Assembly: GCA_012519005.1 (NCBI GenBank)
Contig: JAAYRB010000038.1
Coordinates: 1-35,748, forward strand
Length of the DNA stretch: 35,748 nt
Reading direction: 5' to 3'
From: Clostridia bacterium
Lineage (GTDB): Bacteria; Bacillota; DTU086
Below, one piece after another: positions 6,001-9,000 of this stretch (its first letter is position 1; each line of letters starts with the position of its first letter). The position numbers are program-made.

Positions 6001-9000
6001 GCGGTGCCATAGGTTATACGGATTCAAAGTTTGCCGTTCGGGGAATGACAAAGGCCGCTGCCGTGGAATGTGCCCATTACGGAATCCGTGTCAACTCCGT
6101 ACACCCCGGTGTCATTGAAACACCCATGATTATGCAGGAAGATACAAAAGCTGCCGTGGAGGAATTTGCCCAGCACATACCATTGAAGAGAATTGCCAAG
6201 CCAGAGGAGGTCACCAATCTGGTACTGTATTTGGCCTCCGATGAATCAAGCTATTCAACGGGTTCAGAATTTATTGTGGATGGCGGCATTACCATGGTAT
6301 AGTTTAATAACTGAATAAAGTCGGATGAGTAAAGTATCGGGGATGGGGTCTTGTTTGCAATTCCATCATCTTTGTATTTTTTCAATGATGCCGGGTAGAG
6401 TCTATCAGGATCCCATTCCTCGTTTTTTCACTGAAATTATGTAGGGGAGGTGTCATGTAATAATGTGCGGACGTTTTTCCATGTCAAACTACTCGGATTT
6501 TAATGAGAGGTTTGAGATCGGCCCGCCCCCGGGTGCCAGGCCCCGCTATAATATTGCACCTTCGCAGGATATCCTGGCCATTGTCGGTGGTGACAGCCCC
6601 AGAGCTGTGTATTTCAAATGGGGATTGATACCCTTTTGGGCCAAAGAAAGCTTTAAGGGCTTGATTAATGCCAGGGCGGAAACCGTGGATAAAAAACCGA
6701 GTTTCAGGCACAGCTTTAGGGGCAAAAGATGCCTAATTCCTGCTGACGGCTTTTATGAGTGGGCGGGGGAGGCGGGTAAAAAAACACCTTACAGGATAGT
6801 CTTAAAAGACAATGGGATGTTTGCCTTTGCCGGGTTGTGGGATGTATGGACTTCCCGTGAGGGAAAAACCATCAACACCTGTACTATTATTACCACCGAG
6901 GCCAATACCTTGATAGAGCCAATCCACAATCGTATGCCCGTGATCCTTCGCCGGGAGGAGGAGGGTATTTGGCTCAGAAAGGATATAGATGCCCCAGAAC
7001 TCAAGAAACTTTTAAAACCCTATCCCAGTGAAGGGATGGAATCTTTCCAGGTGTCGACGAAAATCAATAACTTTAGAAATGACATCCCTGAAGTATTGAA
7101 TCCCCTCTAAATAGAATCGCGATAATTTATTAAAGGTCATCGGAAAGTTCCGGGGTCCAATCTTATATCCTATGCAGAATTCCTCTGTGTCATTGGCTGG
7201 CTAACATCACTTATATGCCGCCAGATAATTTATACCCGAAACTATGATGCCGCCGCCGATGAAATTACCCACGCCGGATATCGATAAATTATAGAATATG
7301 TCCATGGCGGTAAGTTTTGCACCGCAGAAAAACCCCGCGTATAAAAAATACATATTGGCAACAACGTGCTCCGTTCCGCTGAGAACAAAAATGACAATTG
7401 CAAGCCATAAAACAACTACCTTTGCAATTTCCTCTTTGCAGCTGTATGCCAGGCAGACACCGGTACAGACAATAATATTACATAAAATAGCACTGATGAG
7501 CAGCTGACCCACCGGCAGCTGCACTTTATTAACTGCCTTATTTACAACCAATTCCCTTACAGCCCCATCAAAAATCCCCGATGCTTCAGTGATATATGCT
7601 ATAAAAATCGATCCCAAGAGATTAGCAAATATCACCAAAATCAAAATGCCAAGGATTTTTCCTGCCCTGGTACGGCCGGCGTAAACGGCACTCACAACCA
7701 TGCAGTCACTGGTGAAAAGTTCCGCCCCCATCAGCAAAACGGCGATAATCCCCAAGGGGAAAACTAGAGCACCAAAAAAATCCCCTAAACCGGGTGTCGA
7801 AACACTTGCGGCAACCTTAAGACTCCCCAACGCCCCGATGGAGATATAAAATCCTGCCAGGATGCCTTGCACCATAAGGGTAAAAAACCGTTTTTTAGCT
7901 TTAATCTCGCCTTGGGATATTATGTAATCTGTTAATGCCTTTGGTCCGGGATGGCCGGTCATAAAAAAAACCTCTCTTGTTTTATTTCTATATTCATTAC
8001 AAATGTTGCCCGTAAACTATTTATTTATCTCTTTGCAAGGTGTAGTCTAATCCATGATTTTACTGCTATTAATATTTTTATTCGCCGGAGACTGCTTCTT
8101 CCCCTTTTTACTCGTTTTTTAAAAATAGTAGTGACAAAAACTTTTTTAAATGCTACTATATATTAAATCTACTTTAATTTACTTAATGGCGTGGGAGGTT
8201 TTTCACCATCCTGTTGAAGAAAAACTGAATAAGGAGTTGAGAAGAGATGAGATGAGCCGAGATAAGCTGAGGTGAGCAGAGTTAGGTTGCTTATGCGATT
8301 TCGCAGACCAATTTTATGCCAATGGGCCGGACTCATTTCTGGGTTCGGCTTTTATTATTGGCTGAGAAGAGATGAGAGGAGATTAAAAAATGAGCGAAGA
8401 GAAGGTTTTGACGGGAGCAAACGCCCGTACAAAGGAAATTGCTATTGTTGCGGTGTTAATTGCCATTGGCGCTGTTCTAAGAATGGTTTCCCCGGCTATA
8501 GCGGGCATCACACCGAATTTTGTTATAGCTATGTATTGCTTATCCATTATGCTTGTGAAACCAAAACTGCCGGGGGCGGTGGGTATCGGCTTTGCTGCCG
8601 GTGCAATCAGTATGGTGACCACCAAATCCCCCATACCCTATATCAACTTGCTTTCCGAGCCTGTGGGAGCAGTGGTGGCTTTAATGGTTTTGCTGGCCCT
8701 GCCCAATTTGTCAGTTAGGGGTCATTCCCTAAGACCTTTAATAATCGGCGCATTGGCCACAATCGCCAGCGGCAGCCTCTATGTCATATCAAATATGTTT
8801 TTGCTGAATTTGCCCGTTGAGGTAGCGAAGGTTGCCTTTCTCACAGTTGTGGTCCCAGTAACACTGATAAACGGTGTTATTACCCAAATTCTGTATTATC
8901 CCACCAACAGATTTGTCAACCTTTAGGGGGAAAGGGCATGAAAGAAAAAATCAAATTAGAAGGTGTAAGCTTTAAATATTCCCGCAGGGAAAGCCCAGCA

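Follow-up and report, generated by a model that had tools for sequence, protein, structure and literature searches.

How is tryptophan uptake controlled in a clostridial bacterium in which the genes of a putative tryptophan importer follow a long, regular array of GAG triplets? The question is raised by contig JAAYRB010000038.1 of the Clostridia bacterium assembly GCA_012519005.1 (lineage DTU086, Bacillota), which was analyzed over a stretch of 35,748 nucleotides (nt), referred to here as the window. An earlier note on this DNA had proposed that the gene trpP lies behind a leader of the type recognized by TRAP, the tryptophan-activated ring protein encoded by mtrB, and that two clusters of triplets flank a terminator-like hairpin in this leader. 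For the core of this proposal, triplets of the TRAP type and a terminator upstream of a TrpP gene, there is strong support from an antiterminator that links the array to the terminator, by the conservation of the layout in 25 other leaders, and by the presence of mtrB in at least nine assemblies that carry such leaders. At a probability of roughly 0.85, the first cluster, the antiterminator and the terminator constitute a TRAP-dependent attenuator of the Bacillus subtilis trp-leader type, which would govern the operon of a tryptophan importer of the energy-coupling factor (ECF) class. The analysis draws on sequence anatomy, alternative RNA folds, conservation across relatives and the co-occurrence of mtrB in related genomes, and from these we infer that TRAP binds the leader, that it responds to tryptophan, and what the second cluster does. 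Since triplets, antiterminator and terminator are laid out like the Bacillus trp attenuator, the leader would represent a new clostridial example of a known switch; it is not a new regulatory principle.

The elements of the proposed attenuator are:
8234-8285, + strand: triplet cluster 1, ten triplets (nine GAG, one AAG) in exact 5-nt register, followed by a UAG; proposed site of a single TRAP ring
8249-8259, + strand: antiterminator 5' strand GAGAUGAGCCG (triplets 4-6), predicted in the minimum free energy (MFE) fold of the transcript lacking the terminator 3' arm
8328-8339, + strand: antiterminator 3' strand CGGACUCAUUUC, comprising the terminator 5' arm and loop, predicted in the MFE fold
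8324-8361, + strand: intrinsic-terminator-like hairpin with the interrupted U-tract UUUUAUUAUU; stem 8324-8351, 12 pairs, loop UUUC

A TRAP site comprises 11 GAG/UAG repeats (nine to eleven (G/U)AG triplets by definition) with spacers of 2-3 nt, and is bound by an 11-subunit ring; the triplet number and spacing of cluster 1 agree with this definition (PMC3913778). The GAG triplets start at 8234, 8239, 8244, 8249, 8254, 8259, 8269, 8274 and 8279, an AAG at 8264 keeps the same exact register, and a TAG at 8283, separated from the preceding triplet by a single nucleotide, closes the cluster. Re-reading and a scripted scan both returned the ten triplets and the TAG that had been reported earlier. 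Nine GAG/TAG triplets share one phase over 55 nt; when the whole window was shuffled 200 times, the peak number at any place was 4-6. None of 20,000 shuffles of the local 60 nt contained a run of six or more, and a scan of both strands found no run at exactly 5-nt spacing longer than two elsewhere in the window. Chance is excluded as the origin of cluster 1 because the shuffled sequences never reach the observed phasing, in line with the original judgment that such periodicity was very unlikely to be accidental.

The short hairpin and U-tract expected between the two clusters were found, the stem at 8324-8351 being followed by a U-rich tail, TTATTATT (written UUAUUAUU beside the loop UUUC). 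The core stem has a folding energy of -16.1 kcal/mol. When the transcript was folded up to the terminator loop, so that the 3' arm was absent, 8249-8259 paired with 8328-8339; when the array was constrained to be unpaired, mimicking its wrapping around a protein, the terminator formed instead. In silico, part of the array thus forms one strand of an antiterminator whose pairing is incompatible with the downstream terminator. This is the arrangement of the B. subtilis trp leader, in which bound TRAP prevents the antiterminator and permits a weak terminator with an interrupted U-tract (PMC3913778).

Three further elements lie between the predicted transcription start and the array or just upstream of them:
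8131-8159, + strand: promoter-like site from a consensus scan, -35 GTGACA, 17-nt spacer, TG-extended -10 TACTAT
8183-8217, + strand: 5' stem-loop upstream of the array, RNAfold -9.9 kcal/mol
8220-8233, + strand: A-rich spacer motif AAAAACTGAATAAG, immediately 5' of the array

Transcription is predicted to start at about 8166, which gives a leader of about 220 nt. The 5' stem-loop still forms when the array is constrained to be unpaired, and may be the counterpart of the B. subtilis 5' stem-loop.

Conservation was assessed in 26 leaders, namely that of the window and 25 others preceding trpP-ecf genes, among which L221-L225 are the five closest relatives. The 25 other leaders come from Desulfitibacter-like metagenome-assembled genomes (MAGs), Pelotomaculum, Desulfotomaculum, Desulforamulus, Desulfofundulus, Heliobacterium and Heliophilum. 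All of them show the succession of array, terminator and trpP, within a common layout of promoter, A-rich motif, array, GC-rich hairpin with a T-run, SD (Shine-Dalgarno) sequence and trpP. A (G)TGACA ... TATAAT-like pair occupies the equivalent promoter position in related leaders, motifs resembling AAAAACTGAATAAG (gacaattacataag, aaaaagttaatag) precede their main array, and in several an inverted repeat between promoter and array is visible by eye, without folding. The best single run in the related arrays contains 4-11 G/UAG triplets. When the window is aligned with its five closest relatives, triplets 4-10 are in register, and triplet positions show an identity of 0.80 to the window, versus 0.41 for spacers.

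The pairing partners of the array are conserved as well. Relatives have other hairpin sequences at the equivalent place, each followed by Ts, and one terminator position is changed on both sides, from G-C in the window to A-U in L221-L225. What these terminators share, despite differing in sequence, is an element, CUCA or ACUCAUUUC, with complementarity to (GA)UGAG. The ACUCAU core of the antiterminator 3' strand, complementary to GAGAUGAG(U), is conserved, and the window shares the longer form ACUCAUUUC with four of its five closest relatives. The antiterminator itself is found again in five of the six closest leaders, where it rests on the conserved complementarity of GAGAUGAG and CUCAU(U/G)UC. 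Relative to shuffled controls, the duplex between array and terminator gave z scores at or below zero in all 17 leaders scored (mean -1.39); these scores count as support rather than as a formal probability, because the leader sequences are related.

An exact search for 38 nt of the leader among the contigs of the reference genome set gave no match. An exact look-up of the window TrpP matched only metagenome and biogas contigs of at most 3.1 kb, which carry no usable variation because their leaders are identical to that of the window. The closest other TrpPs (64-67% identity) belong to Desulfitibacter sp. BRH_c19 and Bacillota MAGs, and the next (46-56% identity) to Pelotomaculum, Desulfotomaculum, Desulforamulus, Desulfofundulus, Heliobacterium and Heliophilum. 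No triplet array was found at the distant TrpP loci (L019 and L021-L055, from Eggerthellaceae, Oscillospiraceae, Treponema and others), and an Rfam scan of 20 TrpP loci, 16 of them distant, returned no match, T-box included. As a separate observation, L222 (3000-3320) and the same region of L223-L225 contain one more TAG/GAG cluster 5' of the main array, which brings the total to about 18 triplets at most and exceeds the capacity of one 11-subunit ring; the window has a plain stem-loop at this place.

TRAP homologues are common in Clostridia. In a search restricted to the clostridial-type N-terminus, at least nine assemblies with a triplet-type trpP leader were found, among the matches listed, to encode mtrB also: Heliobacterium mobile, Heliophilum fasciatum, two Pelotomaculum propionicicum strains, four Pelotomaculum MAGs and Desulfotomaculum sp. 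GB_MAG20_002. The mtrB and trpP leader loci share a contig in one Pelotomaculum MAG. The mtrB open reading frames (ORFs) of the nine assemblies are intact and keep the EK(L/M)D and K-x-R-G motifs, which we take, from the 1C9S structure, to hold the RNA-contact lysines and arginine. A further locus, L201 (36-2754; Syntrophothermus sp. MAG116), has mtrB at 36-281 followed at once by an array of 10 triplets at 307-358 and then by anthranilate-synthase-like genes, trpE-like at 369-2198 and trpG-like at 2053-2754, so that TRAP adjoins a biosynthetic target. Like the window leader, L201 has a GAG/UAG array in a tryptophan-related leader, there in a TRAP-encoding clostridial genome; unlike it, the L201 array directly follows mtrB and precedes anthranilate synthase genes.

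Taken together, the anatomy suggests the following course of events. Region 8166-8389 would serve as the 5' leader of the trpP-ecfA-ecfA'-ecfT operon. When tryptophan is plentiful, a tryptophan-loaded TRAP ring would wrap the ten or eleven (G/A/U)AG triplets of 8234-8285 as they emerge from the polymerase and would keep triplets 4-6 (8249-8259) away from 8328-8339; the terminator at 8324-8351 and its U-tract could then form, and transcription would stop before trpP. When tryptophan is scarce, TRAP would be inactive, the antiterminator 8249-8259:8328-8339 would form in place of the terminator, and the importer operon would be transcribed. In a second and less certain layer, a further TRAP ring on the four to six GAG triplets of 8364-8401 may block ribosome binding on transcripts that have read through.

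The likeness to the B. subtilis trpEDCFBA leader extends to about 11 (G/U)AG triplets with 2-nt spacers and to an array that overlaps the 5' strand of an antiterminator competing with a terminator with an interrupted U-tract (PMC3913778). Both leaders also have a 5' stem-loop upstream of the array and precede an operon for tryptophan supply under tryptophan-dependent control, which is here proposed. Unlike its Bacillus counterpart, the window leader precedes importer rather than biosynthetic genes, belongs to a clostridial (Desulfitibacter-like) lineage rather than to the Bacillaceae, has about 40 nt including a local hairpin between the last triplet and the terminator, and is followed after the terminator by a separate second triplet cluster. 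Apart from the triplets, the two leaders would not be expected to resemble each other in sequence.

Several observations weigh against the attenuator and its proposed second layer. One position of cluster 1 is AAG, and the last UAG has a spacer of 1 nt. The fold of the whole leader is not clearly more stable than those of shuffled sequences (z = -1.83 and -1.10). No mtrB was detected by tblastn in the 35.7-kb window, and none was confirmed, among the matches listed, for the assemblies of the five closest relatives (LOER01, JBFLYC01). The second cluster is absent from most relatives, and its triplets are fewer than the nine or so of characterized TRAP translational operators.

The second cluster poses the question of whether TRAP would also act on translation. 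Its elements are:
8364-8401, + strand: triplet cluster 2, GAG at 8364, 8369, 8374 and 8379 spanning the SD, followed by GAG at 8392 and 8399; possible TRAP translational operator
8374-8392, + strand: SD GAGAGGAG (8374-8381) and trpP ATG (8390-8392)

The four GAG triplets that had been described as covering the SD at 5-nt spacing are present, and the SD stands nine bases 5' of the ATG at 8390. The GAG at 8392 overlaps the start codon and that at 8399 lies beyond it, so that the cluster counts four contiguous in-register triplets, or six if a 10-nt gap is allowed. B. subtilis provides the precedent: TRAP blocks ribosome binding at trpP, trpG and ycbK, and trpP is a known TRAP target with reported control at translation initiation (PMC10327191). 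Cluster 2 resembles these operators in placing triplets over the SD and start codon, one of the B. subtilis targets being a TrpP-family transporter (trpP, also named yhaG) (PMC10327191). It differs from them in its four, or gapped six, triplets against about nine, and the locus as a whole differs from B. subtilis trpP in that an attenuator would exert the main control and in the position of trpP as first gene of its own ecfAA'T operon. We know of no attenuator or adjoining ecf genes at B. subtilis trpP.

Chance produces such a run rarely: a run of four or more appeared in 5 of 300 windows simulated under a Markov-1 model and, when the purine-rich 30 nt around it were shuffled, in 0.035% of cases. 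Among the 26 leaders, an SD-proximal run of at least four triplets after the terminator occurs in three: the window, L005, and L225/L226, whose run GAGctGAGttGAGAGGAG differs in its spacers. Runs of three are found in L222 and L040, that of L040 about 60 nt downstream, and the remaining 21 leaders have two or fewer. Among the closest relatives, L221-L224 have only 2-3 SD-proximal triplets, and the run of four is therefore missing in four of five. An exact direct repeat of 15 nt, TGAGAAGAGATGAGA, is common to both clusters (8238-8252 and 8363-8377). The same 15-mer is also contained in L005, within its SD cluster, and in L020, within its array.

The strongest competing explanation is that cluster 1 alone is regulatory and that the GAG triplets of 8364-8381 amount to a strong purine-rich SD, GAGAGGAG, plus two GAGs that arose by chance or duplication, with no action of TRAP on translation. 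We regard the odds of this as even. It accords with the scarcity of comparable runs among the TRAP-type trpP leaders, with the shortfall from about nine triplets, and with the repeat at 8363, which reproduces 8238-8252 exactly and may have arisen by recent duplication. Against it stand the rarity of the run in simulated and shuffled sequence, the two further GAGs at 8392 and 8399, and the in-register GAG runs over the SD of L225 and L005, in which changed spacers such as those of GAGctGAGttGAGAGGAG are the signature expected of selection on triplets. That recurrence is a hint of selection; the run has few triplets, however, and four of the five closest relatives are without it, and a functional TRAP translational operator in cluster 2 is therefore advanced here tentatively, at somewhat below even odds.

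The earlier claim that both TRAP modes are combined on one transcript consequently stands in part: the in-register GAGs covering the SD are present, but they number only four, comparable runs are confined to three of 26 leaders, and four of the five closest relatives lack them. A more speculative extension, which we consider possible though rather doubtful, is that the transcript carries two separate TRAP sites, a full-ring attenuation site and a short SD site beyond the terminator at which a second ring would silence translation of read-through transcripts; together with the upstream clusters of the relatives, occupancy by several rings might then be a regular feature of leaders in these Clostridia. 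At B. subtilis trpE, a second tier of control reuses the same single TRAP site by RNA refolding (PMC10327191). To our knowledge, no TRAP target with two separate sites has been described. In the terminator conformer of the window leader, 8289-8302 may form an SD-sequestering helix with 8379-8395. The SD is paired in the antiterminator conformer too, there with the 5' end; the folds therefore do not discriminate, and no conclusion on SD sequestering is drawn.

It is improbable that the arrays are bound by some RNA-binding protein other than TRAP, or that they form a protein-independent RNA element resembling TRAP sites. Such a reading gains from the absence of mtrB from the window and from the arrays of L222-L225, whose triplets outnumber what one 11-mer ring holds. 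We know of no other RNA-binding protein that recognizes NAG triplets at 5-nt spacing, and the reading is opposed by the position of the site before a tryptophan transporter gene, by the intact TRAP encoded alongside the leader in at least nine related genomes, and by L201, where the TRAP gene is directly followed by such an array and trpE. It is also opposed by the lack of an Rfam match: no family, T-box included, matches the leader, either in the window at the gathering threshold or in 8050-8450 at E <= 1. The T-box candidate was rejected on these grounds.

That the GAG periodicity reflects a low-complexity purine tract or an attenuator of the leader-peptide or T-box type is hardly credible: the region is purine-rich and a small ORF with one Trp codon (8150-8275) overlaps the array, but a 5-nt period is incompatible with codons, and both the shuffling statistics and the array register conserved in relatives contradict it. 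Considered as a leader peptide in its own right, the ORF was discarded: transcription is predicted to begin only after its ATG at 8150, the in-frame ATG at 8186, which the transcript would include, is not preceded by an SD, and tandem Trp codons are absent.

With the TRAP-dependent attenuator thus preferred, the nature of the controlled operon bears on what the switch would mean. The operon comprises:
8390-8926, + strand: trpP, predicted tryptophan-specific ECF S-component, 178 aa; Pfam TrpP PF17099, E = 9e-17
8938-9786, + strand: ecfA, ECF ATPase, 282 aa; ABC_tran; TIGR04520 ECF_ATPase_1, E = 1e-76, 257.6 bits, below the NCBIfam curated cut-off of 315
9774-10622, + strand: ecfA', second ECF ATPase, 282 aa; ABC_tran; TIGR04520 and TIGR04521, E = 1e-80, 270.9 and 266.8 bits, below the cut-offs of 315 and 330
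10600-11379, + strand: ecfT, transmembrane T-component, 259 aa; Pfam CbiQ PF02361, E = 3e-29

The PF17099 match bears out the assignment of the downstream gene to the TrpP family, and relatives of the protein carry the NCBI name tryptophan transporter. The earlier note had missed that TrpP is the S-component of a four-gene ECF operon. Since two ECF ATPases and a T-component follow, TrpP is the substrate-capture subunit of a dedicated ECF importer and not a lone gene. The order trpP-ecfA-ecfA'-ecfT is kept in nearly all related loci long enough to show it. The arrangement is that of group I ECF transporters, in which an S-component gene, two ATPase genes and a T-component gene form one operon; unlike the vitamin and metal substrates of that group, the substrate here would be an amino acid, tryptophan, a specificity suggested by family membership and by the regulation. 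One metagenome contig (L056, 980-1750), identical to the window in trpP and leader, has a 114-aa ORF between trpP and the first ATPase gene; either its gene order differs from that of the window or the contig is misassembled.

The proposed switch would extend TRAP control from the biosynthetic genes of Bacillaceae to a dedicated ECF tryptophan importer, in several lineages of anaerobic Firmicutes: Desulfitibacter-like bacteria, Pelotomaculum, the Desulfotomaculum group and heliobacteria. Such control would also provide independent regulatory evidence for tryptophan import by this S-component family. The roughly two dozen leaders may represent natural variants of a TRAP attenuator that differ in triplet number, split clusters and optional SD clusters, and could be used to study how array layout relates to TRAP response and ring stoichiometry. 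No paper on TRAP-controlled trpP-ecf operons in Clostridia was found in the literature searched, and older comparative-genomics work may mention them.

The window contains other features of possible interest. A beta-eliminating lyase of the tryptophanase/tyrosine phenol-lyase family (23549-24922, - strand) adjoins a YheO-type PAS/HTH regulator (25212-25847, - strand); the lyase gene lies 15 kb from the tryptophan importer, and no triplet array precedes it. An ORF of 300 aa matching DUF3160 (4238-5140, + strand) spans profile positions 89-338 of 632 only, and the gene may be truncated or frameshifted. A GGDEF diguanylate cyclase is encoded at 17218-18417 (- strand). The only Rfam matches in the window, unrelated to the leader, are two cyclic di-GMP (c-di-GMP-I-GGC) riboswitches at 31859-31946 and 32661-32751 (+ strand), whose scores of 66.7 and 63.9 bits exceed the gathering score. 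Downstream of them lie the ORFs 31981-32571 and 32781-34202, the latter of which combines a camelysin-like Peptidase_M73 N-terminus with Flg_new repeats.

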